Positions 6,085 through 32,273 of a DNA stretch of 64,000 bases are shown here, piece after piece. A program made the translations under genes and the position numbers. The DNA is taken from contig OZ220733.1 of the NCBI GenBank assembly GCA_965116875.1, forward strand, positions 768,001 to 832,000. The letters run 5' to 3'. The DNA is from Candidatus Latescibacterota bacterium. Its GTDB lineage: Bacteria > Latescibacterota > UBA2968 > GCA-2709665. The notes under the pieces are model-generated. The model made no database searches. It was not told the origin of the DNA and worked only from the letters and a program-made list of their open reading frames with translations. Numbering within the stretch: position 1 is the stretch's first letter; every line of letters begins with the position of its first letter.

Positions 6085-7434
6085 CTACGTACCGAACGCA
6101 TCCACAAACTTGAAAAAGTCCGCGAAATCCACGGTGCCGCTCCCGTCCAGATCGAACTTCGCGTTCGTGCTGCCGTACGCGTCGGCAAAGAGGAAGAAAT
6201 CCACGAAGTCGGTCCGGCCGTCGCCGTTGAAGTCTGTTGAGGCCGGACCCTGCACCAGCGGTGTACCGATACGGACGGCCGACCACGATCCGGGTCCCCT
6301 GTTGGTGACCGCACGCAACTGCAGGTCGTACCGGGCGCCGCCCGCCAACCCGGTCACCTCGTACGTCAGCGTGCCGGAACCGGTTGTCCGGACGTACCGC
6401 AATACAGTCCAGTTGGCTTCGGCCTTGTCCGGGGCGTCGCTGCGAATGTAGCGCACGTCGTAGCCGGTAATAATCACGGTGCCGGTTTCGATCGGAGGTT
6501 CGCGCCACGAGATGGTGAGCGAGCCGGTTCCGGCTGTGACCGAAAGGATGGCCGGCGCGTCCGTGCGGAGCGTGAGGTCATAGGCATACAGCTTCTTGTC
6601 CACGTAGTCGGCCACCCACATCGTCGTGCCGTTCGACCAGATCCCGACCGGGTGGCTGTTCCCGGCGGCATTCAGCGAATTGACGTCCCGAAAGGGGTTC
6701 CGGCCATAGTGCGTCAGATCGTACGCATAGATCTTCGCGTCGGCGTAGTCCGCCACCCACATCGTCGTGCCGTCGGACCAGATTCCCTGCGGGTGGTGGT
6801 TCCCGGCGGACCCAAGCGCACTGATTTCTCTCCCGAGATCTGCAACCTCGAGCTCCATGTCATAGGCATACAGCCTGGCGTCGGTGTAATCGGCCACCCA
6901 CATTGTCGTGTCGTTCGACCAGATACCCTCCGGGTTGTCGTTTCCGTTACGCTCCAGCCCGTTGACGTCATTGTCTGCGCTCCGGGCTCCGGTTGACATA
7001 TCGTAGGCATAGATCTTCTCTCCGAACCACGGGTCGTCTGCCACCCACATCGTCGTGCCGTTGGACCAGATGCCCTCCGGGTCGTCGTTTCCTGCGGCCG
7101 CCAGCGTATCGAAATCCTTGTTGGCTGCGCGCGCGCCGGAAGCCAGGTCATAGGCATACAGCTTCCCGTCAGCCTTGTCGGCCACCCACATTGTCGCGCC
7201 GTCCGACCAGATGCCCTCCAGGTCGTCGTTTCCCGCGGCCGCCAACCCATCGATATCCTTACCCGCGTCCCGGGCGCAGCACTCGCCACCGAAGATTTCC
7301 TGCCGCGAATGCAACTTTACCTCCTCATGGCCGCCAACCGGCACGTTGTTGCCCGTATCCGGATGGATCCACGACGCTGACGTGGCCGCCAGAAAGGAGG
7401 CGATAAACCCGATTCTGAAGATTCTGCTTCTCAT
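6085..7434 (-). CDS. Secreted protein: five-repeat beta-propeller (GIWS.GTTMWVAD repeats) + fibronectin type III + C-terminal dockerin-like EF-hand pair
   Basis: Signal peptide MRSRIFRIGFIASFLAATSAS. Five repeats of about 47-50 aa. FN3 motif LTISW..P....ITGYDVRY...GL..G.RY..Q.RAV. C-terminus TDFNGDGRTDFVDFFLFADAYGSTNAKFDLDGSGTVDFADFFKFVDAFG. Confidence 0.85.
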   Translation of the reverse strand: MRSRIFRIGFIASFLAATSASWIHPDTGNNVPVGGHEEVKLHSRQEIFGGECCARDAGKDIDGLAAAGNDDLEGIWSDGATMWVADKADGKLYAYDLASGARAANKDFDTLAAAGNDDPEGIWSNGTTMWVADDPWFGEKIYAYDMSTGARSADNDVNGLERNGNDNPEGIWSNDTTMWVADYTDARLYAYDMELEVADLGREISALGSAGNHHPQGIWSDGTTMWVADYADAKIYAYDLTHYGRNPFRDVNSLNAAGNSHPVGIWSNGTTMWVADYVDKKLYAYDLTLRTDAPAILSVTAGTGSLTISWREPPIETGTVIITGYDVRYIRSDAPDKAEANWTVLRYVRTTGSGTLTYEVTGLAGGARYDLQLRAVTNRGPGSWSAVRIGTPLVQGPASTDFNGDGRTDFVDFFLFADAYGSTNAKFDLDGSGTVDFADFFKFVDAFGT

Positions 7435-7578
7435 GTAATGGTGCCTCCGGGTCAACGAATGTGCAGAATACGACCACCTGAGCCGGTTCCGGTTCGTGAC
7501 TGGCGGTTGCACGACTTTCGAACGGATACGTTGGGATTCAAACCGGACAGTTCCAATCGGCGACGGCGCCAGAATCGC

Positions 7579-10503
7579 CTACGCGCCAAATGCATCGACG
7601 AATCTGAAGAAATCGGCGAAGTCGACCGTGCCGTTTCCATCCAGGTCGAATCTGGCGTCTGTGCTGCCGTACGCGTCAGCGAAGAGGAAGAAGTCCACGA
7701 AATCAGTCCGTCCGTCGCCGTTGAAATCAGTCGAGGCTTGTCCTCCGGTTACGCCACTGCCGAATATCTCCAGAGGCAGATCGGAGGACTTGACGAGGGT
7801 GTAGCCAAAATGGCCATTGGGCAGTCCCGGTAATGTGCCGATATTGACGGTAACCGCCGCGGTCGTGCCGGAGGTGCGTGCGACGGTCAGTGGCTGGCTC
7901 TCGACGCTACCCCTGGAAATCGCGACAGTCGTTGCGCCGCCGCTGATGCTGCCGTTCGCGACGGTAAGCGGCAGGACAATGTTAAAAGGAGCGCCGGCAG
8001 GGGCCACTGCCTTGAACTGCCCTTCTCCGGTTTTCTCCAGGGAAACGTTGAACGGCAGGGGATTGACTGCGTTGCCGTCCAGAGAAAGCCTGTTCAACCC
8101 GGTCAGTCCATCAAAAATGCTATCGGGCAGCGCTGTCAGCCGGTTGCCGATCATGCGCAGGTCCGAGAGTGCGGCCAGTCCTTCAAAGAGGCCCGACGGC
8201 AGCGTTGTCAACTGGTTCAGGCCGAAGCGGAGCGTTTGCAGGGACGATAGCCCGGAGAAAATGTCCTCAGGCAGGCTCGTGAGTTGGTTGCCATACAATA
8301 AAAGTTCCTCCAAACCCGCGAGCCCATCGAAGTCTCCGGATTTCAAGGACGTGATACCCTTGTCGTTGAGGTAAAGCGCCGTAATTCCATCCAGGTGAGT
8401 CGCCGTAACTTCCGCATAGTTCGAGACGTTTGGATCGTTTAGACGGACAACGCCGAGAATCGCTTCTCGCACCTGCGACGTGCGCTGGCTGACCGGAGTT
8501 ATCGAAGCGGCCCACTCGGACACATCCCAGAATTTGATCTGCCTGCTATTCGGCCTCGCATCATTGCCAATGAGCGTTCTTCCGTTTGGTGAAAACAACA
8601 GGCGCCGCACGCCACCCGGCCCACCTGAGATAGACGCCAGGAGTTCGCTCTTGGAAATGTCCCATAGTTCAATCAGACCGAAGGCCGTCACCGCGAGAAC
8701 GGTACCATCCGGCGAAAACACCGGATATGCGCGATTGTAATCGCTCATATCATTCACGGCCCCGGTCTGTGATCCTGTTGCCAGATCCCAGAGCTTGACT
8801 GCCCATGAAATAGGTGACGCGAGAAGCGTCCCATGCCTGGAAATCGCTACTGCTCCTTTTGCTCCAGTCTCGATGGTCGATATCGGGGTTTCTGTAGACA
8901 CGTTCCAGAGCCTGACGGTGCCGGTATTCGACACGGAAGCAAGCTTCCCATCGCCCATAAAGGCGACTTTGCCTATTCTTTCGGCGTGTCCTTCAAGGGT
9001 CGTGCGGGTTGCCCACGTCGCCACGCTCCACAACTTTACCGTGCGGTCGAATGATCCGGAAGCGAGCATCGAACCATCCGGCGAAAAGTCCAGAGATACG
9101 ACTTGATCCGTATGGCCTCCGAGCGTCGCGACCTCTGCTTTGCTGGTCACGTTCCACACTTTGATAGCGCCCTCCCGGGACCCTGCGGCGAGCAGCGTCC
9201 CGCCGGGAGAAAACGCTACAGCATAGATCGTGTTGGCCGAATGGCGAAAGGTGGCTATCGTCTCCCTTTTCGCAGCGTCCAACAACTCCACTCCGCTGCC
9301 GCCTATTGCAAGAAACACGCCGTCAGGAGACATCGCCAGACTGCCGATGTCATATTGATGAGGCATGTCGATTGTGGCGATATGCTGCGGCGAGTGTCCC
9401 GCCTCGAGGAAAAAGCGTATGGGACTGACAGTGCTGGTCCTGTTCCCATTGGTATCGACTGCGACAACATGTATAGGATGCTGAACCGTGTTGGAAAGCG
9501 TCGTATGCGCTTCCGCCACGGTGCCGACGTTGTCAGACGGGAGCCTGCCGTCAAAGCTGAATTCAACGACGGTATCCGTTTCGCCGGACAATCCGTCACA
9601 CGCTTTCACTTCGGGGGTGCCACCCAGAAAGGGGTTCCTGGGGCGAACGAACAGGATGACCTGGTGAAGACCATCGTCATCGCTGACTCTCAGCTGGACG
9701 GGTGTACTCACTGAACCGAACGGATACTCAGATGAAACGAGTTCAACGGTGGGCGGTGATTCGTTTTCGAGTGGTACATCGGGGTCGAAATACGGATGCG
9801 CCGCCAGAAACTCTGCGGCGCAAGCTGACAACGCGCCGGATGACCGGTCCGCGCGTCCGTACGACATGATGTACTTATCATCACGGAAGTCGTGGTGAAG
9901 GCCGAACGCATGCCCCAGTTCGTGGGCGCCGGCAAACCAGTCCCATTCGCCGTATATCATCGCCCATCCGCTGTCCTTCGTACCTGTTCCGCGTCCATGG
10001 GCGGTTCTGCTACTGACGTCCATGACAACCAGCGCGATGTTCTTCGAGTTGTCGAAGGCGCGTTTTATTTCGCCTTCCGTATATCCCCGGCTGCTATAGT
10101 GGCTGTCCGCATAGTCCCCATCGATGCGATGAACGACCGGATCGCCCTGGTCATCGGTTTCAACCTGGAAAGTCGTGTCTCCGTATCCGAGCGCCTCCAT
10201 CTGCTCGCCAAAGAACGTCTGAAGATCGAGAATCCCCGCTTTCATCGAATCCACGACTTCGGTGCGGTACGGCCGGTCGTTCGGCAGGAAATAGAAGAGA
10301 CGCACTGTGCGGGGTTCCCCCACGTTCAGGTCGGACGCCCGCTTACCGGCGGGACCCGGCTCATCGCTCTGCCAATGTTCGGGATCGAAAGGCAGGCAGA
10401 AATGCGCGCTGTCGGCAGGCACGGAAGATGCCTGGCCGTCTGACGGCGGGTGCAGAAATACAGCCAGAACTGCCAGCATTGCCATATGCGAATTCGTCTT
10501 CAC
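7579..10503 (-). CDS. Secreted multidomain protein: metzincin metalloprotease + WD40 propeller + 24-aa LRRs + C-terminal dockerin-like domain
   Basis: HELGHAFGLHH zinc motif with IMSY Met-turn. WD40 repeats (GHTDQVVSLDFSPDGSMLASGSFDRTVKLW). LRRs (NQLTSLPEDIFSGLSSL). Same C-terminal EF-hand pair. GTG start at 10503 is probable. Confidence 0.85.
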   Translation of the reverse strand: MKTNSHMAMLAVLAVFLHPPSDGQASSVPADSAHFCLPFDPEHWQSDEPGPAGKRASDLNVGEPRTVRLFYFLPNDRPYRTEVVDSMKAGILDLQTFFGEQMEALGYGDTTFQVETDDQGDPVVHRIDGDYADSHYSSRGYTEGEIKRAFDNSKNIALVVMDVSSRTAHGRGTGTKDSGWAMIYGEWDWFAGAHELGHAFGLHHDFRDDKYIMSYGRADRSSGALSACAAEFLAAHPYFDPDVPLENESPPTVELVSSEYPFGSVSTPVQLRVSDDDGLHQVILFVRPRNPFLGGTPEVKACDGLSGETDTVVEFSFDGRLPSDNVGTVAEAHTTLSNTVQHPIHVVAVDTNGNRTSTVSPIRFFLEAGHSPQHIATIDMPHQYDIGSLAMSPDGVFLAIGGSGVELLDAAKRETIATFRHSANTIYAVAFSPGGTLLAAGSREGAIKVWNVTSKAEVATLGGHTDQVVSLDFSPDGSMLASGSFDRTVKLWSVATWATRTTLEGHAERIGKVAFMGDGKLASVSNTGTVRLWNVSTETPISTIETGAKGAVAISRHGTLLASPISWAVKLWDLATGSQTGAVNDMSDYNRAYPVFSPDGTVLAVTAFGLIELWDISKSELLASISGGPGGVRRLLFSPNGRTLIGNDARPNSRQIKFWDVSEWAASITPVSQRTSQVREAILGVVRLNDPNVSNYAEVTATHLDGITALYLNDKGITSLKSGDFDGLAGLEELLLYGNQLTSLPEDIFSGLSSLQTLRFGLNQLTTLPSGLFEGLAALSDLRMIGNRLTALPDSIFDGLTGLNRLSLDGNAVNPLPFNVSLEKTGEGQFKAVAPAGAPFNIVLPLTVANGSISGGATTVAISRGSVESQPLTVARTSGTTAAVTVNIGTLPGLPNGHFGYTLVKSSDLPLEIFGSGVTGGQASTDFNGDGRTDFVDFFLFADAYGSTDARFDLDGNGTVDFADFFRFVDAFGA

Positions 10504-10574: not shown

Positions 10575-12929
10575 TCATTCATGCCCTTTGAGGACATCGA
10601 CTATGCGCCCTTTCTCATCCACGACGTAGATCGGTCCCTCAGCGACACAATCTCCCCAGTTCATCAGATGCTCCGCGACGGGCTTCGCGCCTGCCGGGTC
10701 GGGAAGCCTGTATTCGTCGGCCTGGCCGACGTCGACTTGGTAGCCGTGGTCGGCCAGCGACTGAATCGAAATCCTGCTCAAAGGAACGGGCTCTGCGAGG
10801 TCCGTCCTGAAGGTTGCTGTCATCAGTTCGTCGCCGAACACCGATCCTCTCCAATGACTGCTATCTCTCTCTGCAGGTACCTTTGGGCCGCTGTAGTTCC
10901 GCCCTCCCGCATCGTCGAAGGCTCGAATCGCCCGTGGGCCGGTGAAATACACGTCACGTGCTCCGTGCACAAGGTCCAGTGATTCCCATACCGTCCCGAT
11001 CCCAAGCACGTGCCCCATCTCATGCAGGACTACGCCCGAAAGAAGGGTCTCAGACATCCACTCCAGGTCGTCCCTGTCGATGGCGATCACACCGATCTTC
11101 GTAACCACGGTACCCCGACTTCGATTTCTTTTGACAATGCGCGTTCCTCCTCTGCCAAGCGTGCCCCTGGCGCCGTCGATGTCCCCGATACCAACGAAGA
11201 TCCGCAGGTCATCCACAGTATCGTCGACGAATATTCGTGCATTCAGAAGATCGTCCCACCTGTCGAGCGGATTATCCGAGAAGTCGCTGTCCGAAATGTC
11301 TCCGGTAATGATGGACATCCAGCGTGCGGCAGCCTCGTGGAATAACGCCTTCTGGGACGCGTTGTATCCGTCGCCTGAAGAGCTTTCGACGAAGACGATC
11401 TCGATACGGAAGGGAGACGCCGCGACGGTAACGGCCACCGCGCTCGAGCAGTTGTTTCCGGTATCGGATTCACCCGTGACCGCATCCACACAGGCGCCGT
11501 AGTAGTATGCGCCGGCGGACGATGGCGCCGTCAAACCGATGGACTCGGCAACGGTCCCCGATGCCGCAAGCCCCTGCACCGCAACCGAACCAACTTCCGT
11601 ATCGCGCCTGGAAATCGTCGCGTTCGGCGAACGGAAATAACGCAGCGTTGTCGAGGGCGCCTGAGCATTTCCGCGGTTCCGCACGGTCACATTGAGCGTG
11701 AAGGACTCCCCGGTCGTCAAAGCGCTGCCGCTCCCGGTGGGCGCGTCGAGTACAAGGTCCGGACTTCCACCGCTGGAAGTCGGGATCACCTTGCCGAAAT
11801 TCCTCGCGAAGATCAGAAAATCTGAGAATCCGATTTGCCCGTCGCCGTCCAGATCGAAACGCGCGTCAAACCCCGCGTCGCCCTGCCGTTCGCCGAATCT
11901 CGACGCAAATCGCACAAAGTCGGAAAACCCGACAGTCCCGTCGCCGTCAAAGTCCGGAGACGCAATCGCGTTGAACGTGATCGCGTTCGCCGTCGTCAGC
12001 ACCTCTCTTGACGTGGTACTCCCGGCAAGTGTAACCGTCTCGATGCCGATGGAGAATTCCCTGCCCGTTACATCCGCAATCGTCTCGAACTCGGCGCGCG
12101 CAAGAAAGCCGGACGGCGCAGGCGTTACCGGCGTACCGGACGCGAAGTTGACGCCAACGGACCCTTCAGGAAGCATCAGCGGAAACGCGCTGTTCTCGGC
12201 TTCGACGAAGGTCAGAAGCGACGCGTCAAAGTCAAACCTGAGGATCATGCCGATCAAAGGCGTTCTCACATCGGCAGCGAAAACCTCCACCGCGATGGTT
12301 GCTCCCGATCCGTTGACAATGCCTGACGTGACGCGATCGTCGATCCGGTTGCCCGCGCCGCCGCCCGGTATGAGGTCAAGCGACAGAGCATCGCTGCCGC
12401 CGGCTCCGGAATGCCTGGCATTGAACGCAATCACATCTGTCGTCGTAAGTACGTCGCTGGACGTGGTACTCCCGGCAAGCGTAACCGTCTCGATGCCGAT
12501 GGAGAATTCCCTGCCGGTTACATCCGCAACCGTCTCGAATTCGGCGCGCGCGAGAAACCCGGATGACGTTAACGACACCGGCGTTCCGGACGCGAAGTTG
12601 GTGCCGATGGATCCTTCGGGAAGCGTCAACGGAAACGCGTTGTTTTCGGCCTTGACAAAGGACAGCACAGAAGCGTCAAAGTCAAACCTGAGGACCAGGC
12701 CGATCAGGGGCGTACTCACCCCTCTGGCGAATACCTCAATCGCGATCGTTTTCCCGTTTCCGGTAACCGTGCCTGAGACGACCCCGTCGTCGATCCGGTT
12801 GCCTGCTCCCCCGTCGGTAATCAGATCAAGTGTGAGTACCGCAGATGCATTGGGACCGGCAATGGCCTGACCGGCAAATGCAAGCGACGCAATCGCCACG
12901 AAAGCCAACAGAACCCGTCCTGGAAACAT
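10575..12929 (-). CDS. Secreted scaffoldin-like protein: two cohesin-like domains + internal dockerin-like domain + CARDB + leishmanolysin (M8)-like metalloprotease
   Basis: Signal peptide. Two repeats of about 145 aa (IAIEVFA..V.TPLIG..LRFDFDAS.L.FV.AEN...SGFLARAEF). Dockerin-like PDFDGDGTVGFSDF...FDLDGDGQIGFSDFLIF. CARDB (VRNRGN...YYYGACVDAVTGESDTGNNCS). M8-like HEMGHVLGIG...SHW...DELMT. Confidence 0.8.
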   Translation of the reverse strand: MFPGRVLLAFVAIASLAFAGQAIAGPNASAVLTLDLITDGGAGNRIDDGVVSGTVTGNGKTIAIEVFARGVSTPLIGLVLRFDFDASVLSFVKAENNAFPLTLPEGSIGTNFASGTPVSLTSSGFLARAEFETVADVTGREFSIGIETVTLAGSTTSSDVLTTTDVIAFNARHSGAGGSDALSLDLIPGGGAGNRIDDRVTSGIVNGSGATIAVEVFAADVRTPLIGMILRFDFDASLLTFVEAENSAFPLMLPEGSVGVNFASGTPVTPAPSGFLARAEFETIADVTGREFSIGIETVTLAGSTTSREVLTTANAITFNAIASPDFDGDGTVGFSDFVRFASRFGERQGDAGFDARFDLDGDGQIGFSDFLIFARNFGKVIPTSSGGSPDLVLDAPTGSGSALTTGESFTLNVTVRNRGNAQAPSTTLRYFRSPNATISRRDTEVGSVAVQGLAASGTVAESIGLTAPSSAGAYYYGACVDAVTGESDTGNNCSSAVAVTVAASPFRIEIVFVESSSGDGYNASQKALFHEAAARWMSIITGDISDSDFSDNPLDRWDDLLNARIFVDDTVDDLRIFVGIGDIDGARGTLGRGGTRIVKRNRSRGTVVTKIGVIAIDRDDLEWMSETLLSGVVLHEMGHVLGIGTVWESLDLVHGARDVYFTGPRAIRAFDDAGGRNYSGPKVPAERDSSHWRGSVFGDELMTATFRTDLAEPVPLSRISIQSLADHGYQVDVGQADEYRLPDPAGAKPVAEHLMNWGDCVAEGPIYVVDEKGRIVDVLKGHE

Positions 12930-23600: not shown

Positions 23601-25761
23601 CACCGCGCCGGACGTCGAAGATAGAACTCGCGTAGGAACGACCCGAAAGCGTGAGTGTCACAACGCTCCCGTTCAACGTCGCCTCCGTCAAGGACTGCGC
23701 CACTGTCGCAACAACGGTTTCCTCCAGGGCAACTACATGTACCTGGTCCGTAAGCGCGGGACCGCTGTAGTTCGCGAGTGCCCCCGCGCCCACGGTGAAT
23801 GTCAACGTGCCGTCCGCGTCGATGTCGCCGTTGAAGTCCAGTTCAACCGTCACCTTCGTGTCGCTCACACGCTGCACCCCGAAAGTGCCTACGCTCACGC
23901 CGGTAATTCCCGACACCGACACCCCGTCGCGGACGTCGAAAGTGGAACTCGCGTATCTCGCCCCGGTAAGCGTCAACGTCACCACGCTCCCGTCCAGTGT
24001 TGCCTCCGTCAATGGCGAAACCGTTGTAGCGGTAACCGATTCCATCGCCGCGGCCACTGACAGTTGTGCCGAGAGCGCGGGCCCGTTATAATTCGCGAGT
24101 GCCCCCGCGCCCACGGTGAACGTCAACGTACCGTCGCTGTCGATGTCGCCGTTGAAGTCCAGTTCAACCGTCACTTTCGTGTCGCTCACACGCTGCACCC
24201 CGAAAGTGCCTACGCTCACGCCGGTAATTCCCGACACCGACACCCCGTCGCGGACGTCGAAGGTAGAACTCGCGTATCTCGCCCCGGTAAGCGTCAACGT
24301 CACCACGCTCCCGTCCAGCGTTGCCTCCGTCAATGGCGAAACCGTTGTGGCGGTAACCGATTCCATCGCCGCGGCCACTGAAAGTTGTGCCGAGAGCGCG
24401 GGCCCGTTATAATTCGCGAGTGCCCCCGCGCCCACGGTGAACGTCAGCGTACCGTCGCTGTCGATGTCGCCGTTGAACGTCAGCTCAACCGTTACCACCG
24501 TATCACTCTTGCGCTGCACGCCGAACGTGCCCACACTCACACCCGCAATACCCGACACGGACACCGCATCTCGGACGTCGAAAATGGAACTCGTGTATTT
24601 TCCTCCGGTGAGCGTCAACGTTACCAGACTCCCGTTCAGCGTCGCTTCGGTTAACGGTGATGCCGTTGTTGCCGTCAACGTCTCCATGGCAGCACTTACC
24701 GGCAACTGCGCGGTCAGTGCGGACCCGGCGTAATTCGCGATCGCGTCCGCGCCCACCGAGAACGTCAACGTGCCGTCGCTGTCTATGTCGCCGTTGAACG
24801 TCAGCTCAACCGTTACCACCGTATCACTCTTCCGCTGCACGCCGAACGTGCCAACGCTCACACCGGCAATGCCCGATACGGACACACCGTCACGAACGTC
24901 GAAGATCGAGCTCTCATATGTGCCACCAGTCAGCGTAAGCGTCACCACGCTCCCATTCAGCGACGATTCGGTCAACGGCGACGTCGTCGTCGCCGTCACC
25001 GATTCCATCCCCGCGCTCACGGTCAACTCCGCGGTCAACGCGGCGCCGTTGTAGGACTCGATCGCGTCGGCGCCCACCGTAAACGTCAGCGTACCGTCGC
25101 TGTCGATGTCGCCGTTGAAATCCAGCTCAACCGTCACCCTGGAATCGCTCACGCGTTGCACGCCGAACGTGCCAACGCTCACACCGGCAATGCCCGATAC
25201 TGAAACGCCGTCACGAACGTCGAAGATCGAACTCTCGAAAGCTCGTCCGGAAAGCGTCAACGTCACCACGCTCCCGTCCAGCGTCGCTTCGGTCAACGGC
25301 GACACTGTCGATGCCTCCACCGTTTCTTCCACCGACGGGATAGACAAATCTCTCGTTAGCGCGGCGCCGTTGTAGGACGCGATGGCTCCCGCGCCAACCG
25401 TGAACGTGAGCGTTCCTTCTTCGTCGAAGTCTCCGTTGAAGTCCAGTTCTATCGTCAATTTGGTATCGCTTGCACGCGTTATCCCGAACGTCCCCACGCT
25501 AACGCCTGCAATCCCCGATACCGTTACCGCCCGACGGATGGAGAAGATAGACCGCTCGAAAGTACGCCCGGCAAGCGTCACGGTAACCTCGCTGCCATCC
25601 AGCGTCGCCTCGGTCAACGGACTTGACGTCGACACGGTGATCGACTCCTGAACCGCGGGAACGGGAACCTGGGCGTATCCCGAAACCGGCAGGGCGAATG
25701 CCGCCACAACGACTCCCAACGACATCAAGGCGAATCGCCAATTCTCAACTCTCCGTTTCAT
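20644..25761 (-). CDS. Large secreted adhesin: nine 107-aa repeats + cadherin + YWTD (LDL-receptor class B) propeller + plant-type LRRs + C-terminal dockerin-like domain
   Basis: Signal peptide ending VSGYAQ. Nine SPLTEATL.GS.VTLTL.G...GVSVGTFG.QR.SD...GTLTFTVGA repeats. Cadherin (AENTPAG..VG...ATD.DG..L.YSL...YEVTV.VSDG...DVNE). Six YWT(D/N/E) blades. LTG.IP.ELG LRRs. C-terminus ADFNGDGIVNFADFFDFVDAFG. Confidence 0.85.
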   Translation of the reverse strand: MKRRVENWRFALMSLGVVVAAFALPVSGYAQVPVPAVQESITVSTSSPLTEATLDGSEVTVTLAGRTFERSIFSIRRAVTVSGIAGVSVGTFGITRASDTKLTIELDFNGDFDEEGTLTFTVGAGAIASYNGAALTRDLSIPSVEETVEASTVSPLTEATLDGSVVTLTLSGRAFESSIFDVRDGVSVSGIAGVSVGTFGVQRVSDSRVTVELDFNGDIDSDGTLTFTVGADAIESYNGAALTAELTVSAGMESVTATTTSPLTESSLNGSVVTLTLTGGTYESSIFDVRDGVSVSGIAGVSVGTFGVQRKSDTVVTVELTFNGDIDSDGTLTFSVGADAIANYAGSALTAQLPVSAAMETLTATTASPLTEATLNGSLVTLTLTGGKYTSSIFDVRDAVSVSGIAGVSVGTFGVQRKSDTVVTVELTFNGDIDSDGTLTFTVGAGALANYNGPALSAQLSVAAAMESVTATTVSPLTEATLDGSVVTLTLTGARYASSTFDVRDGVSVSGITGVSVGTFGVQRVSDTKVTVELDFNGDIDSDGTLTFTVGAGALANYNGPALSAQLSVAAAMESVTATTVSPLTEATLDGSVVTLTLTGARYASSTFDVRDGVSVSGITGVSVGTFGVQRVSDTKVTVELDFNGDIDADGTLTFTVGAGALANYSGPALTDQVHVVALEETVVATVAQSLTEATLNGSVVTLTLSGRSYASSIFDVRRGVSVSGITGVSVGTFGIQRVSDTKVTVELDFNGDIDADGTLTFTVGADAIANYSGPALIATLPVSAGMESVTASTPSPLTEATLNGSVVTLTLTGGKYASSVFDVRRGVTVSGITGVSVGTFGVQRASDTKVTVELTFSGDIDADGALTFTVTAGAIANYSGASLTAQLPVTAGMESVTATTVSPLTEATLNGSVVTLTLTGGKYASSVFDVRRGVTVSGITGVSVGTFGVQRASDTKVTVTLTFNGDIDTDGTLTFTVGAGAIANYSGASLTAQLPVTAEVGGETNQVPTFSEGASTTRSFAENTPAGQNVGGPIRATDGDGGTLSYSLEGTDAASFVLVSTSGQLQTKTGVIYDYDVKNRYEVTVRVSDGQGGSATIDVTINLTDVNEPQANPELYWTDASKDKIQRANLDGSNVEDLVTETDGLDGPVGLVLDVDGGKMYWTEWERNKIKRANLDGSNIENVVTSGRAPVWLALDVPGGKLYWTDWGTDRIQRANLDGSNVEDLVTRNLNSPGGLSLDVTNGKMYWTDSSWHKIQRANLDGSNVEDLITSGVDGPSGLALDVVHGKMYWTNLNADKIQRANLDGSNVEDLITRGLDKPYELVLDLAGAKMYWTNGGFAKIQRANLDGSNVEDLVARADGLSNPSGLALAVAPAPTPPAPQGPCATGSAVPNPAANPWLVSDCNVLLEARDPLRGTATLNWSENTAIATWDGVTISGTPQRVTNLRLWNKGLNGTIPAGLSRLTGLNALQFGYNQLTGTIPAELGSMTGLTHLVLPSNLLTGTIPAELRNLTNLRKLALQINGLTGNIPSWVGTLRRLQILNLYENQLTGAIPTELGNLTELWQLLIFGNRFTGTIPAELGNLSLLQEVRLDDNRLTGSIPSTLGGLARLGLLYLAGNSLTGCIPPALREISRHDMDKLNLPDCSQPQGQKTADFNGDGIVNFADFFDFVDAFGTTDAKYDLDDNGIVNFADFFEFVDAFGTSG
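22760..25650 (-). repeat. Intragenic tandem array of nine 321-bp units
   Basis: The period of 321 nt is visible, for example in the antisense ORFs starting at 23795, 24116 and 24437. Units 5/6 and 8/9 are nearly identical in DNA. Confidence 0.9.
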
Positions 25762-25774
25762 AAGTCAGCATCCT

Positions 25775-28700
25775 CTATTCAAAGGTGCCCCTGGTGACGC
25801 GTCCGCTCTCGATGCTGCATCCGCCGGAAGAAACACAGGTATAACGGGTTCCATCCTGAAGCTCGATCAGACCGCCGTTCTGGAAGCTGAGTACGGCGCG
25901 CCCCCCACTGATTGTAAGGCTCGCATTCCGAATGAGCCTGGGCACGAAGAAGCCGGTGGGGAAGTTCGGAAGCACATCACCGACGCCGTAGGTTCCGCCG
26001 CTGCTGCTACCGCCTGAGGCGCCTATGGCCAGTCCCGACGGATCCACAAGCCCGTTGGAACTGGTGAGCAGGTCTTCGACGTTGGAGCCGTCCAGGTCCG
26101 CGCGCTGGACCTTGTCGGCATCCACGTCCGTCCAGTACATCTTGCCGCCGGACACGTCCAGGTCCAGCCCGTTCGGGCTCGTCAGGCCGCTGGTGACCAG
26201 GTCTTCCACGCTGGAACCATCCAGACCGGCGCGCTGGATCTTTTTTGTGCCGCGATCGGTCCAGTACATCTTGCTCCCGGACAGATCCAGGGCCAGGCCG
26301 GTGGGGCTGCTCAGTCCGCTGGTCACGAGGTCTTCCAGGTTGGCGCCGGTCAGGTCCGCACGCTGGATCTTGTCCGACCCGGGATTCGTCCAGTACATCT
26401 TGCCATTGGCCACGTCGAGTGCGATTTCACCAGGAAATGCCAGACCCGCCAGCGTGAGCAGGTCTTCAACGTTGGAACCGTCGAGGTCCGCGCGCTGGAT
26501 CTTGCCGTTCTGCCGGTCCGTCCAGTACATCTTGCCCCCGGACACATCGAGCGCCAGACCGTACGGCACGCTCAGGCCGCTGGTAATAAGGTCCTCGACG
26601 TTGGCGCCGTCCAGGTCGGCCCGCTGGATCTTTGCCGTACCCGCGTCCGTCCAGTACATCTTGCCACCGGCCATATCCAGGGCCAACCCGTCCGGGCCGT
26701 TGAGTCCGGCGCCGCTGACCAGATCCTCGACGTTCGAGCCGTCCAGGTCCGCGCGCTGGATCTTGTCCGTGCCCCAGTCCGTCCAGTACAGTTTCGACGT
26801 TCCCGTGGCGGGTGGCGTCGTCGCCGCAACAGTAATGCTCACCGCCGCGGAGCAGTTGTTTCCGGTATCGGATTCACCCGTTACCGCATCCACGCAGGCC
26901 CCGTAGTAGTAGGTGCCGGAATTCGATGGCGCCGTCAGGTCAATCGCCAAAGCCAGATCAATCGATCCGGGATTCCCTCCCGACGCCGCAAGGCCGTTCA
27001 CCGCGTCCGTTCCAACTTCCGTGTCGGACGTTGAGATGCTCGCGTCGACCGACATATAGTAGCGCAACGTCGTAGCCGCCGACATCTGATCGCCCTGGTT
27101 GCGAACTGACGCGCCCAGCCTGAAGGTGTCGCCGGCAGCCGGGCTGCTGTTGCTGACGAAAGGCGATACGACAACCAGGTCGGCACTGCCTCCACCCCCG
27201 CCGCCGGAACCGCCACCCCCGCCGCCAGACGCCGTCGCCAGGGCCAGACCCGACGGGTCCACCAGCCCGTTGGCTCCGGTTACCAGGTCTTCCACGTTGG
27301 AGCCGTCCAGGTTGGCGCGTTGAACCTTATTCGTGCCGGTGTCGGCCCAGTACATTTTCCCTCCGGACACGTCGAGAGCCAGGCCATTCGGTCGATTCAG
27401 GCCGCTGGTGACAAGGTCTTCGACATTGGCCCCACTGAGGTCCGACCGCTGGATCTTGTCCGAGCGCCGGTCCGTCCAGTACATCTTGCCGCCGGATATA
27501 TCAAGTGCGATCCCGGTCGGACTGTCTACGCCCCTGGTGACGAGGTCTTCGACTCCTGATCCATCCAGGTTGGACCGCTGAATCCTGTTCGCGCCCGGAT
27601 TGGTCCAGTACATCTTGCCGCCAGACACGTCCAGGGCCAGACCGCCGGGAAACGTCAGACCGCTGGTGATCAGGTCTTCCGCGTTGGCGCCGTTGAGGTC
27701 GGCACGTTGTATCTTGTTCGTCTGCCGGTTCGTCCAGTACATCTTGCCGCCAGACACGTCCAGGGCCAGACCGTACGGTATTCCCAGGCCCGTTACCAGG
27801 TCTTCCACGTTCCCGCCATTGAGATCAGCACGCTGGATCTTGTTGGCGCCCGCATCCGTCCAGTACATCTTGCCGCCTGCCATATCCAGCGCCAAACCGT
27901 CCGGCCCGTCCAGTCCGCCGCCGGAGACCAGGTCTTCCACCCCCGAGCCGTCCAGGTTGGCGCGCTGGATCTTGTCGGTTCCCCAGTCCGTCCAGTAGAG
28001 TTTGGACGCTCCAGGGGTGGGCGGTGGTGGCGCCGCAGCAACCGTCAGGGCAACGGCAGGCGAACAGTTGTTCCCCGTATTGGACTCGCCGGAAACCGCG
28101 TCGACACACGCGCCGTAGTAGTAGGTTCCCGAACTGGAAGGCGCCGTCAGGTTGATCGACTCTGCGCTGACGCCGCCGGCGGAGAGTCCGCTCACCGCGT
28201 CAGTGCCTGCTTGCGTGTCGCTGGTGTTCACTGTCGCGTCGGTCGAACGGTAGTAGCGCAAGGTCGTCGCGGCAGACGATCCGTTACCCTGGTTCCGGAC
28301 TGTCGCGCCAAGCGTAAAGGTCGCCCCGTGCGATACGCGACTGCTGCTCAGGGAGGGGGACTGAACGACCAGATCCGGGTTGCCGCTACCACCACCCCCA
28401 CCGCCCGGCGATGGCGGTGGACCTCCAAAGCTCTGCGCGAAGATCAGAAAATCCGTAAAGTCAACCGAACCATCGGAATTCAGGTCCTGTGCGGCATTGT
28501 ACCTCCCGTCGCCCTGCCGCGACCCGAACGCGCCCGCAAAAATCAGAAAGTCCGAAAATCCGACGAAATCATCGCCGTCGAAGTCTGGAGAGGGCGCCGA
28601 GTTAAACGTAACCTCACTGCTTGTCCTGAGTTCGTCGCTCGAGGTGGGACTTTCCGCGAGGGTAACCGACTCGATGCCAATGGCGAACTCCCGGCCGGTT

Positions 28701-29110
28701 ACGTCCGCAACGGTCGTAAACTCCGCACGCGCCAGAAACCCGGAAGCCGCCAGTGTGACGGGGCTTGACGCCGCCAGGTGGGTGCCGATGGAACCCTCCG
28801 GAAGCGACAGTGGGAACGCGCTGTTTTCGACCTCTTCATACGACACCAGCGAAGCGTCGAAGTCGAATTTCAGGATCATTCCGGCCAGGGACGTCCGCAC
28901 GCCGGTCGCGAATACCTCAACGGCGATGGTTGTGCCCCGACCGGAAACTGTTCCCGACGTGACCCCGTCATCCGTCCGGTTACCGGCGCCTCCACCGGGA
29001 ATCAGGTCAAGCGACAGGACGACATTGGCATTGGCGCCGGCGAAAGCCTGTCCGGAAACGACGACGACCGCGAGGGCGGCAATCAACAACAGAATCCGTT
29101 TGGGAAGCAT
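25775..29110 (-). CDS. Secreted scaffoldin-like protein: cohesin-like + internal dockerin-like + (CARDB + YWTD propeller) x2 + small Cys-pair C-terminal domain
   Basis: Signal peptide ending GQAFA. Cohesin-like domain homologous to that of 10575-12929. PDFDGDDFVGFSDFLIF...QDLNSDGSVDFTDFLIF. Two CARDB domains, and two sets of six GKMYWT...KIQRADL.G.NVEDL repeats. Confidence 0.85.
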   Translation of the reverse strand: MLPKRILLLIAALAVVVVSGQAFAGANANVVLSLDLIPGGGAGNRTDDGVTSGTVSGRGTTIAVEVFATGVRTSLAGMILKFDFDASLVSYEEVENSAFPLSLPEGSIGTHLAASSPVTLAASGFLARAEFTTVADVTGREFAIGIESVTLAESPTSSDELRTSSEVTFNSAPSPDFDGDDFVGFSDFLIFAGAFGSRQGDGRYNAAQDLNSDGSVDFTDFLIFAQSFGGPPPSPGGGGGGSGNPDLVVQSPSLSSSRVSHGATFTLGATVRNQGNGSSAATTLRYYRSTDATVNTSDTQAGTDAVSGLSAGGVSAESINLTAPSSSGTYYYGACVDAVSGESNTGNNCSPAVALTVAAAPPPPTPGASKLYWTDWGTDKIQRANLDGSGVEDLVSGGGLDGPDGLALDMAGGKMYWTDAGANKIQRADLNGGNVEDLVTGLGIPYGLALDVSGGKMYWTNRQTNKIQRADLNGANAEDLITSGLTFPGGLALDVSGGKMYWTNPGANRIQRSNLDGSGVEDLVTRGVDSPTGIALDISGGKMYWTDRRSDKIQRSDLSGANVEDLVTSGLNRPNGLALDVSGGKMYWADTGTNKVQRANLDGSNVEDLVTGANGLVDPSGLALATASGGGGGGSGGGGGGSADLVVVSPFVSNSSPAAGDTFRLGASVRNQGDQMSAATTLRYYMSVDASISTSDTEVGTDAVNGLAASGGNPGSIDLALAIDLTAPSNSGTYYYGACVDAVTGESDTGNNCSAAVSITVAATTPPATGTSKLYWTDWGTDKIQRADLDGSNVEDLVSGAGLNGPDGLALDMAGGKMYWTDAGTAKIQRADLDGANVEDLITSGLSVPYGLALDVSGGKMYWTDRQNGKIQRADLDGSNVEDLLTLAGLAFPGEIALDVANGKMYWTNPGSDKIQRADLTGANLEDLVTSGLSSPTGLALDLSGSKMYWTDRGTKKIQRAGLDGSSVEDLVTSGLTSPNGLDLDVSGGKMYWTDVDADKVQRADLDGSNVEDLLTSSNGLVDPSGLAIGASGGSSSGGTYGVGDVLPNFPTGFFVPRLIRNASLTISGGRAVLSFQNGGLIELQDGTRYTCVSSGGCSIESGRVTRGTFE

Positions 29111-29256
29111 CGGGGAACACTCCTTTGTTTCGACGTCGATTTCATTCCGGCAACTCTACCGGGGTTGGGATTCGAATCTTGGCTCGCGACGTCGCGATTG
29201 AATCTCCTGCGCGTACGATGTCGACTGGATTCAGAATCGTGGAATTGCAGTCAGGC

Positions 29257-30066
29257 CTACTTCAACAACAGCATCCTCCTGGTCGCTGAGAAACTGCCCG
29301 CCTGTATCCGATACAGATAGATGCCGCTGGCCACGCGCCGGCCCAGCGCGTCCGTCCCGTCCCACGTCGCGGTAAAAGACCCGGCGTTTCTGCGTTCGTT
29401 CACCATGACGCGCACCTCCTGGCCGATCAGATTGTATATCGCCAGCCGAACCATTCCCGCCTCCGGCAACTGGTAGCCGATCGCGGTGGAGGGGTTGAAT
29501 GGGTTGGGCATATTCTGCTCCAGATTGAACCGATCCGGCAGCGGCTTCAGATCGCCGATTTCGGCGTGATGCAGCATGTCGACGGCACCATCCAGGCCCA
29601 CCAGAACGCTTTCCGATACCTGAAAGTCGGACGACAACGGCGTTGCGCTCGTCCTGAACACAAGCTCGACGAGCTTCCCGCCGCCACTGGCGCCCCGGCC
29701 GTCGATCTTCACCGCGCCAATATCCACCTGCCCCGGCGTCCGGTTCGACGAGAGGAACAGGGTCTCCTGACCGGAACCGGATTTCAGCAGGTTGCCGTCG
29801 AGTTCCGTGGCACTAACGAACTCATACTTCAAGGGATCGTATTGCAGCGAAAACCCGTATCCCTTCAGATCACTGGTCTGCGCCACCGACACGAGCATTT
29901 TCAGAACGCCACTTTCCGCGTCCGGATCGTTCACGCGCTCCAACTTGAGCGTAGCGCCGGAGTTCCGACCTCCGGTAATGGTCAGCCCGCGGGTCATGTC
30001 CCCGGCGAATACCTGGCCGATCAACACAAACGCCGCACAAACGGATGTAACGATTCGAGTCCACAT
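29257..30066 (-). CDS. Small cohesin-domain protein with FlgD-Ig/T9SS-like C-terminal sorting domain (putative anchoring scaffoldin)
   Basis: Strong RBS AAGGAGG before MWTRIV...VFAG signal peptide. Cohesin-like LKGYGFSLQYDP.KYEFV...G.G.LVELVF. C-terminus FNLEQNMPNPFNPSTAIGYQLP....VRLAIYN..GQ.VR.......AG.....WDGTD..G..VASGIYLYRI.AG.F...RRMLLLK. Confidence 0.85.
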   Translation of the reverse strand: MWTRIVTSVCAAFVLIGQVFAGDMTRGLTITGGRNSGATLKLERVNDPDAESGVLKMLVSVAQTSDLKGYGFSLQYDPLKYEFVSATELDGNLLKSGSGQETLFLSSNRTPGQVDIGAVKIDGRGASGGGKLVELVFRTSATPLSSDFQVSESVLVGLDGAVDMLHHAEIGDLKPLPDRFNLEQNMPNPFNPSTAIGYQLPEAGMVRLAIYNLIGQEVRVMVNERRNAGSFTATWDGTDALGRRVASGIYLYRIQAGSFSATRRMLLLK

Positions 30067-30368
30067 AACTACCTCCTTTTTGTCACCCGAACGGTGACGT
30101 GGTGAGTACTGCCGACCACGTGGCCTTGAATACCGGTTTTCCGATCCAAAGAACTCGGAATCCAGGAAACAAGCCTCTCGTCCAAAATCACGAACGTCGT
30201 TTATTGAAATCGAGCTCAATCCGGCATTCGTCAGAACAGGCACAATCTTACTCACTGACTCGCCAACGCCGGCCTGAATCCGGTATTGAGACTCCGACTT
30301 CATTTGCTCCCACCCTTGCCAGACGGGCGAGGTGTTCTGCCGAACGCCTCCTTCCGTTCCTCAATGGG

Positions 30369-32273
30369 TCAATCACCAATGATGCCGCCGGCTTCCGGCC
30401 ACCGTCCCCCGTACTTCTCCCCCACAGCGTGGTGTAGCCCCGGTTTCTTCTTGCTCACCGCTGGCTTCGACGCACCAAATGACACATCGACGCCTCTGCG
30501 CCGGAGATCCGGAATGTGCACGTTGATCGAGGTCGCATTCAGTGGGTTATTCCTCACATCCAGGAGATCACCGCTGCCCATTCCGGTATTTGCAACGAGT
30601 GGCGCGAGATCCGAAACCTGGTTGCTTTCGAGATCCAGCCACTCCAGACGAGTCAGACCCGACAACGCAGACACATTTGATATGCTGTTGCCGGCAAGCC
30701 ACAACCACTCGATGTTTCGCAAAGTCGATAGTGCAGACACATTCGATATACTGTTGTCGTCAAGATCCAGAAACTCCAGACGGGTCAGACCCGACAGGGC
30801 CGATACGTTCGATATGCTGTTGCCGGCAAGCCACAATATACTCAGTTTGGTCAATTTAGATAGTAAAGACACATCCGAGATGCTATTGTTATCAAGATCC
30901 AACACTTCCAGACGAATCAGGCCCGATAGAGCCGATACATTCGAGATGCTGTTGTCCGAAAGACCCAGTCCTGTCAGGTTGATCAGATACGAAAGCGCAG
31001 ATACACTGGAGATGCCGTTGTCGGAGAGATCCAGGATTTCCAGACGGGTCAAGTCCGACAGCGCCGAAACATCGGATATCCTATTGCCCGCAATTCCCAA
31101 CACGCTCAGGTTGGTTAAGTTTAATAAGACAGACACAAGCGCAGACGTACTGGGAAAGCTGTTGTAGCCAAGGCCCAGGGTATCCAGACGGGTCAGACCC
31201 GAGAGGGGCATGACGTTCGAAATGCTGTTTTCGGAGAGATCCAGGAATTCCAGGCGGGTCAAACCCGACAAGGGCACAACGTTCGAAATGCGGTTGTCTG
31301 AAAGATCCAGCCGCTTCAGGTTCACAGCAGCTTCCAGCCCGGTCAGATCGCCGATCGACTTCGAGTATGCCTCAAGGCGAGTCAGGGTAGCCATCTCCGC
31401 CGGAGTGACCGGCGCACCCCGTGGCTTCCCTAGACTGTCGGTAATAATGGTACGCAGGGTTACGTCCGGAACGGAAACTTCATTTGGGCCATCACCGCCC
31501 GGCGTTCCATTGACCGAAAGGGTATTCTCACTGACGTACTTGCCCCTTACTCCGTTGATCGTGATTTCCGCTGCCAATCTGTATTCACCCGGGCTGGAGG
31601 GTGAATAGGAACACAGACCGGCGCGCTCCGTACCCGAAACGTCGACCCATGTCTGTCCATCCTTGCGCTGCCACTTGGACGTATGAGTCGTGTAAACGAC
31701 ACCGTTGACATTAGCGTTGTTCCAATGGATACATCTTCCAACCGATATGAAGCCAAACTGGACCCGACCGTCGGATACTCGAAGACCTGCCAGAGGCTTA
31801 TAATCCGCGGCGGGCGTCGTTGGACCACCCTCACCAGAGGTCGGAACCTGACTGCCGAATGCGCCCGCAAAGATCAGAAAATCCGAGAAGGCAACGGACC
31901 CATCGCCGTCCAGATCGAACCGCGGATCATACCGCGCATCGCCCCGGCTGGACCCGAAACTGCCCGCGAATGCAAGGAAGTCGGGAAACCCTACCGTCCC
32001 GTCGCCGTCGAAGTCTGGCGACGGTGCGGTGTTATGCGAAATCTGTCCTTCCAACAAAAGCTTCGACGCGACACTGGTTGTGTCCTTCGGAGGAACCACG
32101 ATCGTCGAGGCTTCGCCACTGGTCACGCTACCCCATGCGTCGCCGGCATCGAGCCCTAGAATCCTCTCGGCGTTAGCAATGGGGCCGGCGAAACCAGGAG
32201 CTGCAACAGCATATACCGCTGTGGCAGCTATCATCAAGGGCATTATAAGAGTCATTGGCGACTCACTCCGCAT
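30369..32273 (-). CDS. Secreted protein: N-proximal dockerin-like domain + unnamed Ig-like domain + internalin-like 22-aa LRRs
   Basis: PDFDGDGTVGFPDFLAF...FDLDGDGSVAFSDFLIF; internalin-like cap VPDVTLR..I...LGK; repeated L.L..NSISNVSALSGLTRLE. Confidence 0.85.
   Translation of the reverse strand: MRSESPMTLIMPLMIAATAVYAVAAPGFAGPIANAERILGLDAGDAWGSVTSGEASTIVVPPKDTTSVASKLLLEGQISHNTAPSPDFDGDGTVGFPDFLAFAGSFGSSRGDARYDPRFDLDGDGSVAFSDFLIFAGAFGSQVPTSGEGGPTTPAADYKPLAGLRVSDGRVQFGFISVGRCIHWNNANVNGVVYTTHTSKWQRKDGQTWVDVSGTERAGLCSYSPSSPGEYRLAAEITINGVRGKYVSENTLSVNGTPGGDGPNEVSVPDVTLRTIITDSLGKPRGAPVTPAEMATLTRLEAYSKSIGDLTGLEAAVNLKRLDLSDNRISNVVPLSGLTRLEFLDLSENSISNVMPLSGLTRLDTLGLGYNSFPSTSALVSVLLNLTNLSVLGIAGNRISDVSALSDLTRLEILDLSDNGISSVSALSYLINLTGLGLSDNSISNVSALSGLIRLEVLDLDNNSISDVSLLSKLTKLSILWLAGNSISNVSALSGLTRLEFLDLDDNSISNVSALSTLRNIEWLWLAGNSISNVSALSGLTRLEWLDLESNQVSDLAPLVANTGMGSGDLLDVRNNPLNATSINVHIPDLRRRGVDVSFGASKPAVSKKKPGLHHAVGEKYGGRWPEAGGIIGD

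Follow-up and report, generated by a model that had tools for sequence, protein, structure and literature searches.

The DNA studied here is a 64,000-nt window (positions 768001-832000 of the single contig, GenBank OZ220733.1, of a 5.45 Mb genome), in which every long open reading frame (ORF) between positions 6085 and 32276 lies on the minus strand; these ORFs were named P1 to P10. We consider it likely that they are one of the gene clusters of a non-cellulolytic cohesin-dockerin assembly system that extends over the whole genome of this sponge-associated Gemmatimonadota bacterium, with which it probably builds a cellulosome-style display system for a use other than cellulose. This reading is based on a family of duplicated calcium-loop tags that are best read as dockerins, on two divergent families of predicted cohesins, on a small cohesin protein with a sorting domain of the type IX secretion system (T9SS), and on the distribution of these modules in the whole genome and among its relatives. 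Coordinates are those of the window unless they carry the prefix G000:C1, which denotes the contig.

Results

Dockerin tags

Eight intact ORFs (P1, P2, P3, P4, P5, P7, P8 and P10) carry a duplicated D-x-[DN]-x-D-G...F-x-D-F pair, and P6 carries half a copy. The pair occurs in two forms, namely tagA, which is C-terminal with 27 residues between the loop starts (P1, P2, P4, P5, P7 and the P6 remnant), and docB, which is internal with 33 residues between the loop starts (P3, P8 and P10). Both calcium loops and their helices are visible in all 8 tags, and in the AlphaFold2 (AF2) model of P8 helices are predicted at residues 159-169 and 192-200, directly after the two dockerin loops. The tagA copies are mutually 65-87% identical, and a hidden Markov model (HMM) built from five of them scores these copies at E 1e-24 to 2e-29; the motif is not a product of chance.

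A docB-containing profile matched solved dockerins (2y3n_B, E 3.1e-10; 4u3s_B, 1.1e-8; 4wi0_B, 5.5e-8; 5k39_B, 2.3e-6), with calmodulin only at about 1e-3. The Pfam family Dockerin_1 (PF00404, cut-off 22.9 bits) scored 25.9 bits on the P8 docB in a six-frame search and 22.3 bits in a whole-protein hmmscan, and 22.5 and 17.7 bits (the latter by hmmscan) on the P3 docB; across the genome it matches 47 places at E≤0.01. When tagA was aligned to docB with hhalign, a probability of 98.6% (E 1.2e-15) was obtained, the sole structural difference being a 6-residue linker deletion. Taken at the level of sequence comparison, the tags are best read as true dockerins, tagA being the form with the short linker and docB the one with the long linker. 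The initial annotation, which had described eight co-oriented tagged proteins plus one remnant and had assigned the EF-hand pairs to the dockerins, is upheld on both points.

Among P1, P2, P4 and P5, the DNA identity of the tags is only 72-78%, with a proportion of synonymous differences (pS) of 0.50-0.81, near saturation, and a proportion of non-synonymous differences (pN) of 0.04-0.08. Recent gene conversion of the tags is ruled out by this low DNA identity together with the near-saturated synonymous sites. Since non-synonymous change amounts to 4-8% while synonymous sites are near-saturated, the constancy of the tag reflects selection and not recent copying; tagA is under strong purifying selection on unrelated cargo.

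Cohesin modules

Cohesin-like domains are found twice in P3, once in P8 and once in P9, in agreement with the initial annotation, which had placed them in two tagged proteins and in the small gene that we name P9. The N-terminal family of about 145 aa in P3 and P8 was named cohA. Its AF2 model, based on an alignment of 18 genome paralogues, reached a predicted local distance difference test (pLDDT) value of 78; the best-ranked Foldseek matches of this model were mainly cohesins (E about 1e-5), and by VIA it matched the Clostridium perfringens cohesin 2vo8 (Z 11.8, rmsd 2.8, 124 aa), all nine best rows being cohesins. A cohA profile searched against the sequences of the Protein Data Bank (PDB) gave cohesins in five of six matches, the best at only E 0.0077. 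The Pfam family Cohesin (PF00963, cut-off 24.1 bits) is passed by one cohA paralogue (26.0 bits) and by the cohA relatives P0241 (75.8 bits), P0359 (53.6 bits) and P0243 (31.6 bits).

The P9 domain was modelled from 36 orthologues (pLDDT 79). By VIA, ranks 1-40 were all cohesins with Z 11.8-13.8, the best being 6kgc_A (Z 13.8, rmsd 3.2, 135 aa), and Foldseek likewise placed mainly cohesins on top, with 2w1n first. A P9 profile gave weak cohesin matches alone among PDB sequences (NagJ, E 0.08-0.4), so that fold comparison was needed for its identification; PF00963 is passed by a P9-type paralogue (35.6 bits) and is precomputed on some P9 orthologues. Judged by their modelled folds, the domains of about 145 aa are cohesins, belonging to two very divergent families, cohA and P9-type. 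A complex prediction for the single pair of the P9 cohesin (residues 22-180) and tagA, run without controls, scored 0.21 against a mark of 0.32 and counts neither for nor against their binding.

The P9 anchor, secretion and regulators

The model TIGR04183 matches P9 with 29.3 bits (cut-off 23 bits) at residues 266-345 of the 348-aa ORF, that is, at its C-terminus, and the final 90 residues are predicted to adopt the fold of the PorU C-terminal domain (CTD) 6za2_A (VIA Z 11.0, rmsd 2.1, 88 aa). The small secreted protein P9 joins a cohesin to a T9SS type A sorting domain, and the C-terminal sorting domain of the initial annotation is thereby identified.

Within the T9SS machinery, SprA and PorU were searched for. 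The genome encodes SprA (TIGR04189; summed score 630 bits, cut-off 200 bits). When the whole genome was searched with NF033707 (PorU), the gene at 35520-41423, which lies 5.5 kb upstream of P9, was the sole match outside the CTD tail of the model (model positions 259-749 with 220.7 bits, and 872-1094 with 75.1 bits). The encoded PorU-like C25 peptidase is 1967 aa long, compared with 1095 positions in the NCBIfam model; besides a propeptide and a CARDB-like part, it contains about 800 additional residues and a CTD of its own. Two receiver-AraC genes, located upstream of the cluster, are syntenic in three of the five same-genus loci that keep P7-P8-P9 (L124, L125 and L126); this synteny shows linkage only, and the control of the cluster by these genes, which had been proposed in the initial annotation, is an inference.

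Genome-wide distribution

Among the 48,962 ORFs of 60 aa or more in a six-frame translation of the whole genome, the tagA HMM matched 98, a count that is a lower bound, at least three further dockerins having been found by motif or alignment only. Of these 98 tags, 53 lie at the C-terminus of the protein, 28 at the N-terminus and 17 within the chain. There are 18 copies of cohA in 17 ORFs, and in 16 of these ORFs docB follows within a few residues. P9-type cohesins were found in 6 ORFs, five of them small proteins and one located at the end of a 1748-aa protein (the paralogue scoring 35.6 bits with PF00963); four of the six genes adjoin a cohA-docB gene. A P9-like CTD is carried by only 21 ORFs, and the dockerin is thus the commoner tag of the two.

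Rather than a self-contained machine, the locus is a single cluster among many in a system that spans the genome. The platform that the initial annotation had assigned to this locus therefore stands as regards its modules, which are real, and does not stand as a separate unit, the genome as a whole encoding at least 98 dockerins together with about 24 modules of the cohesin type. No carbohydrate-binding module (CBM) family was listed on the cohesin proteins scanned, which included those of the window, the genome paralogues and the metagenomic relatives. The system would work like a cellulosome and yet falls outside its definition, because it has neither a multi-cohesin scaffoldin with CBMs nor a cargo dominated by cellulases.

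Cargo

Above Pfam thresholds, WD40 and leucine-rich repeats (LRR) were found in P2, a fibronectin type III (FN3) domain in P1, Glug in P5, CARDB in P3 and P8, Ldl_recept_b (YWTD) in P7 and P8, and LRR in P7 and P10. Below the cut-off remained Cadherin in P7 (26.0 against 28.8 bits) and Peptidase_M8 in P3 (15.2 against 21 bits). The protease part of P2 matched the PDB entries 8dek_B (E 3e-6) and 6z2d, an 'O-glycan protease' (E 7.5e-4), with the zinc motif aligned; the P3 protease domain gave no informative match to PDB sequences. Of the domains named in the initial annotation, WD40, LRR, YWTD, FN3, GLUG and CARDB thus pass their thresholds and the metzincin is recovered through its PDB matches, while the cadherin and M8 assignments stay under the Pfam cut-off. 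P3-like giant paralogues pass the M8 family with 55.4 and 27.2 bits. Two proteins of about 3000 aa (G000:C1:2386760-2395846 and 2574242-2583475; L182 and L183) show the order cohA, docB, Big_9, FN3, cadherin, LRR and C-terminal leishmanolysin (M8), and P3 looks like a short version of them.

No glycoside hydrolase (GH) family was listed for the ten window proteins by Pfam, where for P2 the best 25 of 53 matching families were considered. Outside the window, the Pfam census of dockerin ORFs covers the 25 most populated families of each set, so that rare families, single GHs included, can be missed; there, WD40 proteins account for 26 of 89 dockerin ORFs (Pfam counts 15-17 of 51 and 11 of 38), and the other 63 include, among the top 25 of their 85 families, FGE-sulfatase (7), LRR_4 (7), fn3 (5), FG-GAP_3 (5), Big_9 (5), SGL (5), CARDB (4), Hepar_II_III_C (3) and Peptidase_S8 (2). 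The cargo consists mainly of WD40, LRR, YWTD, FN3, FG-GAP and FGE-sulfatase domains and of metalloproteases. GH9 had no match in the genome; a search for GH48 returned none either, yet its search control gave no match. At G000:C1:145283-171793 (L139 and L140), there is an array of eleven tandem paralogous WD40 proteins, every one of which has a docB-type dockerin at its end.

Relatives and habitat

The close relatives of the window proteins belong to named Gemmatimonadota metagenome-assembled genomes (MAGs). Full-length P9 homologues (best E≤1e-95) occur in every one of the 21 other genomes of the family, usually in several copies, and in 28 of 31 genomes of the sister family within that order; outside the order, the matches are weaker (1e-65 to 1e-30) and partly cover the CTD only. 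The system is conserved across one Gemmatimonadota order. The gene order P7-P8-P9 is retained in five same-genus genomes, with the whole block plus the AraC and PorU genes in three, and in another genus three tagA genes flank P9. In a search of loci with the P9 alignment (80 loci), CTD peptide patterns dominated, mostly from unrelated CTD proteins of phyla of the Fibrobacterota-Chlorobiota-Bacteroidota (FCB) group; a P9-type cohesin was recognized by HMM in 3 of these 80 loci, with a dockerin gene nearby in none of the three.

The cohA-docB module of the P8 type heads 622 proteins with varied cargo (E≤1e-5, among 7,998 scored candidates). None of 120 listed relatives of this module bears a precomputed PF00963, and the 15 that have a source name all appear as 'hypothetical protein' or 'leucine-rich repeat domain-containing protein'. 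Against 1.84 billion cluster representatives, the cohA profile found 849 proteins at E≤1e-3, of which 412 reach E≤1e-10. In 117 of the 142 best new cohA representatives, one or more cohesins are followed by a dockerin, the arrangements being cohA-dockerin (91), cohA x2-dockerin (11), cohA-dockerin x2 (7) and single cases (8). Among these single cases, the metagenomic protein P0241 contains seven tandem cohA modules and a dockerin in 1100 aa, while P0265, P0359 and P0387, also metagenomic, combine cohA x3, a dockerin, a P9-type cohesin and a T9SS CTD in one chain of about 760 aa. Since these fusions join cohA, dockerin, P9-type cohesin and CTD, the four module types belong to one system, and the metagenomic relatives display the scaffoldin pattern that this genome lacks.

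Contigs of four 'sponge metagenome' runs, from four studies, covered 27-30 of the 30 bins of the window segment 13000-32900 at 90-99+% likeness. No RNA run is found among the sequencing runs listed for the locus.

Features of the locus

The features of the cluster and of the regulator and sortase genes are given in Table 1; signal peptides were assigned by eye, without a predictor.

Table 1. Coordinates, content and supporting matches of P1 to P10 and of the adjacent regulator and sortase genes.
Feature	Position	Strand	Content	Evidence
P1	6085-7512	-	47-aa-repeat propeller, FN3, C-terminal tagA dockerin 6088-6252	fn3 39 bits; tag E 1.5e-28 (tagA HMM)
P2	7579-10578	-	metzincin protease (HELGHAFGLHHD), WD40 propeller, LRR, C-terminal tagA 7582-7746	WD40 117 bits; LRR_8 62 bits
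P3	10575-12938	-	signal peptide, cohA x2 (12414-12851, 11964-12401), docB 11787-11954, CARDB, HEMGH M8-like metalloprotease	cohA HMM E 6e-49, 1e-50; CARDB 40.7 bits
P4	13179-14306	-	47-aa-repeat propeller, C-terminal tagA 13182-13346	tag E 2e-29
P5	14313-16988	-	choice-of-anchor R domain, GLUG repeats, C-terminal tagA 14316-14480	Glug 75.7 bits; NF041539 53 bits; tag E 1.1e-28
P6	16963-17433	-	remnant of LRR-tagA gene; only first tag half left, ~17074-17159	LRR_1 34 bits; half tag E 1.8e-6; DNA repeat family D15 includes 17087-17159
P7	20644-25761	-	nine 107-aa repeats, cadherin-like domain, YWTD propeller, LRR, C-terminal tagA variant 20647-20817	Ldl_recept_b 162 bits; LRR_8 63 bits; tag E 1.6e-24
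P8	25775-29110	-	signal peptide, cohA 28595-29032, docB 28415-28585, (CARDB + YWTD propeller) x2	AF2, Foldseek, VIA, Dockerin_1
P9	29257-30066	-	269 aa: signal peptide, predicted cohesin ~29533-29961, T9SS type A CTD ~29260-29529	TIGR04183, AF2, VIA
P10	30369-32276	-	signal peptide, N-terminal docB 31839-32015, LRR	LRR_4 132 bits; tag E 6.5e-10
Receiver and AraC helix-turn-helix (HTH) regulator 1	33211-33918	-		HTH_18 72 bits; Response_reg 55 bits
Receiver and AraC HTH regulator 2	34095-34856	-		HTH_18 69 bits; Response_reg 41 bits
PorU-like C25 peptidase	35520-41423	-	putative T9SS sortase, own CTD	Peptidase_C25 232 bits

P1 and P4 have in common 47-aa repeats (DNA repeat families D10 and D11), located at 6594-7313 and 13385-14100 and of the form GIWSDGTTMWVAD...KIYAY, which probably build a propeller of an undescribed repeat type; their sole Pfam matches are short ones to NCH3, apparently spurious. 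P7 contains, at 22764-25652, nine tandem 321-nt (107-aa) repeats with 66-95% DNA identity and no convincing Pfam family. Between the P6 remnant and P7 (17798-20490) lie a BamE-like gene and four small genes, paralogues of one another, for lipoproteins of 141-200 aa with a lipobox-like Cys in each, with no Pfam family and a G+C content of 0.50 against about 0.60 in the flanks; in a same-genus genome (locus L124) such genes likewise adjoin the P7 orthologue. The presence of the P6 remnant suggests that an LRR-tagA gene was truncated either by the arrival of the lipoprotein genes or by a deletion. Past the sortase gene (43076-45255 onward), a sugar-nucleotide dehydratase/epimerase gene and a family 4 glycosyltransferase (GT4) gene were found, the latter resembling transferases of PEP-CTERM/XrtA systems (181 bits, under the cut-off), and both are possibly part of a surface polysaccharide cluster.

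Discussion

We propose that the P9-type cohesins would be exported by the T9SS, that the neighbouring PorU-like sortase would remove their CTD and that they would be anchored in the outer membrane. By analogy with the established behaviour of these families, dockerin-tagged proteins would dock on the cohesins in a Ca2+-dependent manner, and at this locus the docked cargo would comprise a mucinase-like metzincin, an M8-like protease, and WD40, LRR, YWTD, FN3, cadherin-like and GLUG proteins. The proteins headed by cohA-docB, P3 and P8, would act as adaptors, both binding and bound, giving rise to short chains or branches in place of one giant scaffoldin. Such an assembly may serve to display proteases and repeat proteins of eukaryote-like type at the cell surface, where they would contact and process host matrix. 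As to the pairing, our guess, drawn from the anchoring and primary scaffoldins, is that the P9-type cohesin pairs with docB and cohA with tagA. The most elaborate version of the model, in which sponge-symbiotic Gemmatimonadota would build a cellulosome-scale, T9SS-anchored, self-assembling lattice with a two-tier P9-docB/cohA-tagA code and branched chains formed by cargo-fused adaptors, is put forward tentatively, and the odds are against it in this full form.

Several observations weigh against the proposed assembly system. Regarding the tags, tagA has no match to PF00404 at E≤0.01, the P3 and P8 copies of docB fall below the threshold of that family in hmmscan, and the tagA profile alone matches the solved dockerin 2y3n_B at E 1.2e-4, no better than single calmodulin EF-loops, for which reason the membership of tagA among the dockerins depends on its link to docB. 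With regard to the cohesins, PF00963 gives no match on the cohA modules of P3 and P8 and only 19.7 bits on P9, under its cut-off; cohA and the P9 domain show no significant sequence likeness to each other (hhalign probability 6.5%); and for cohA, Ig-like domains of streptococcal adhesins and of pilins score by VIA within 2 Z units of the cohesins. Dockerins outnumber cohesin modules by about 4:1 (at least 98 against about 24), and two cohesins are the maximum for any protein of this genome, which makes small anchors and cohesin-dockerin adaptors likelier than one large scaffoldin. The PorU-like protein reaches 310 bits with NF033707, under the cut-off of 420 bits, and in 9 of 16 loci examined in relatives a P9 homologue stands without a dockerin or cohA gene within 10 kb. 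Finally, a 394-aa ORF at G000:C1:4397242-4398423 (L175) joins an N-terminal dockerin to a GH5 cellulase-family domain (118.8 bits, the sole above-cut-off GH5 of the genome), and heparinase II/III domains occur on three dockerin proteins, so that the absence of glycan-degrading cargo, which had been part of the initial annotation, holds for the window and not for the genome.

These last proteins bear on a different use of the same parts, namely a cellulosome-like machine that would degrade host glycoproteins and sulfated glycans, with which the bacterium would feed on the sponge matrix and in which the repeats would be substrate-binding modules. It would accommodate the likeness of the P2 protease to 6z2d and 8dek_B, the M8 domain of P3 that passes its threshold in the giant paralogues, the FGE-sulfatase, heparinase and S8 peptidase domains counted among the 63 non-WD40 dockerin ORFs, and the GH5 protein, and an analogous complex of Cloacimonadota has been interpreted in this way (PMC8542988). 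We hold this use to be unlikely, since most of the cargo has no catalytic domain, WD40 proteins making up more than a quarter of the dockerin ORFs outside the window and LRR, FN3 and FG-GAP being frequent, since a protease domain is found in only two of the eight tagged window proteins, and since no CBM is listed on the cohesin proteins and GH9 is absent.

It is quite improbable, in our judgement, that no pairing between proteins takes place at all, the tags being Ca2+-dependent stabilising or matrix-binding modules or a sorting tag, and the cohesin-like domains Ig-like spacers or adhesin domains. The excess of dockerins, the scores of pilin and adhesin domains close to those of cohesins for cohA, the 'choice-of-anchor' domain of P5 and the extreme C-terminal place of 53 of the 98 tags, which resembles that of a sorting signal, would all suit such a reading, and many non-cellulosomal dockerins reportedly have no known partner, as said of the survey published by Peer and colleagues in 2009. 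Yet the 28 N-terminal and 17 internal tags misfit a C-terminal sorting signal, a cohesin directly followed by a dockerin is the standard form in the best metagenomic representatives, and arrays of up to seven cohA modules correspond to a scaffoldin pattern; furthermore, P9-type genes repeatedly adjoin dockerin genes, and the near-constancy of tagA on unrelated cargo despite synonymous saturation is what would be expected for a shared partner. The short distance between cohA and docB, a few residues in 16 of 17 cohA ORFs and in most relatives, could also point to a self-contained pair, acting as an intramolecular clasp or in homodimers or homopolymers and stabilising or oligomerising each cargo without mixed complexes; cohesin and dockerin lie likewise within one non-cellulosomal protein in Archaeoglobus (PDB entry 2xdh). 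This we regard as very improbable, because it would leave unexplained about 80 tag ORFs without an attached cohesin, the stand-alone T9SS-anchored P9 cohesins, and the proteins with 2-7 cohA modules and one dockerin.

The assembly system that we favour resembles the cellulosome of clostridia such as Clostridium thermocellum, with its anchoring and primary scaffoldins, in the two Ca-loop/helix repeats on secreted cargo, the cohesin beta-sandwiches, the surface-anchored cohesin protein, the combination of cohesins with one dockerin as in a primary scaffoldin, and the presence of about 100 tags per genome. It differs in its Gram-negative Gemmatimonadota host and its T9SS CTD anchor, in place of SLH or sortase-LPXTG anchoring, in having at most two cohesins per protein, no CBM seen and the cohesin-dockerin unit at the N-terminus of the cargo, and in a cargo mostly composed of WD40, LRR, YWTD, FN3 and proteases, with one GH5 and no GH9. 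Another point of comparison is provided by the toxin-enzyme complexes of C. perfringens NagH, NagJ and NanJ (PDB entries 2ozn, 2jh2, 2vo8 and 2w1n). These are among the best structural matches, 2vo8 for cohA by VIA and 2w1n ranked first by Foldseek for P9, and they are also non-cellulosomal, with single cohesins within the cargo and enzymes directed to host glycans; they come from a Gram-positive pathogen, amount to a handful of proteins against about 100, and are not known to include a dedicated membrane-anchored cohesin of the P9 kind. Cohesin- and dockerin-like modules outside cellulolytic organisms, on proteases and repeat proteins and sometimes both in one protein, are said to have been surveyed by Peer and colleagues before the present genomes existed.

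The closest precedent is found in another member of the FCB group, the Cloacimonadota 'Ca. Stygibacter', for which a genome-inferred cellulosome-like complex with a T9SS-anchored cohesin protein and dockerin peptidases has been described (Williams et al., 2021; PMC8542988). Both systems have been put forward on the basis of genomes alone, both have a cohesin protein with a T9SS-type CTD, and peptidases, of the S8 and C25 families in Cloacimonadota, are part of the cargo in both. The Cloacimonadota complex has one scaffoldin of 3,755 aa with tandem cohesins and CBM2/CBM3, and a cargo including GH18 and GH57, in contrast to the small single-cohesin anchors, the second divergent cohesin family fused to dockerins, the eukaryote-like-repeat cargo and the lack of CBMs found here. 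Thus, non-cellulosomal, T9SS-anchored cohesin-dockerin assemblies with peptidases are already published for Cloacimonadota, and in Omnitrophota non-cellulosomal dockerins are mentioned as possible adhesins (PMC10066038). Judged from paper listings, no such system was found in the literature for Gemmatimonadota or sponge symbionts, and the words dockerin, cohesin and cellulosome are absent from a paper on coral-reef sponge MAGs (PMC8163846). New here are the lineage and the scale, together with a divergent cohesin family that is joined to a dockerin and opens the cargo proteins, the small single-cohesin T9SS anchors and the predominance of eukaryote-like repeats in the cargo; cohA, in particular, is a divergent cohesin family, as judged by its modelled fold, that precomputed Pfam domain lists leave unmarked.

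About a hundred secreted proteins, among them repeat proteins, proteases and sulfatase-like proteins, share one family of docking tags, and putative anchored and adaptor cohesins are encoded in the same genome. With this, the vague idea of 'host-interaction proteins' becomes a testable assembly model, whose parts, tags of 55 aa and cohesins of 145 aa, are small and expressible; designer surface display in Gram-negative bacteria could moreover draw on the cohesin-dockerin pairs and the T9SS anchor as orthogonal building blocks. Sponge symbionts are characterised by eukaryote-like repeat proteins, whose route to the cell surface and retention on it are, to our knowledge, unclear. If the two-tier lattice is true, it would provide a missing mechanism by which symbionts present WD40, LRR, YWTD and cadherin-like proteins, together with proteases, to host cells.

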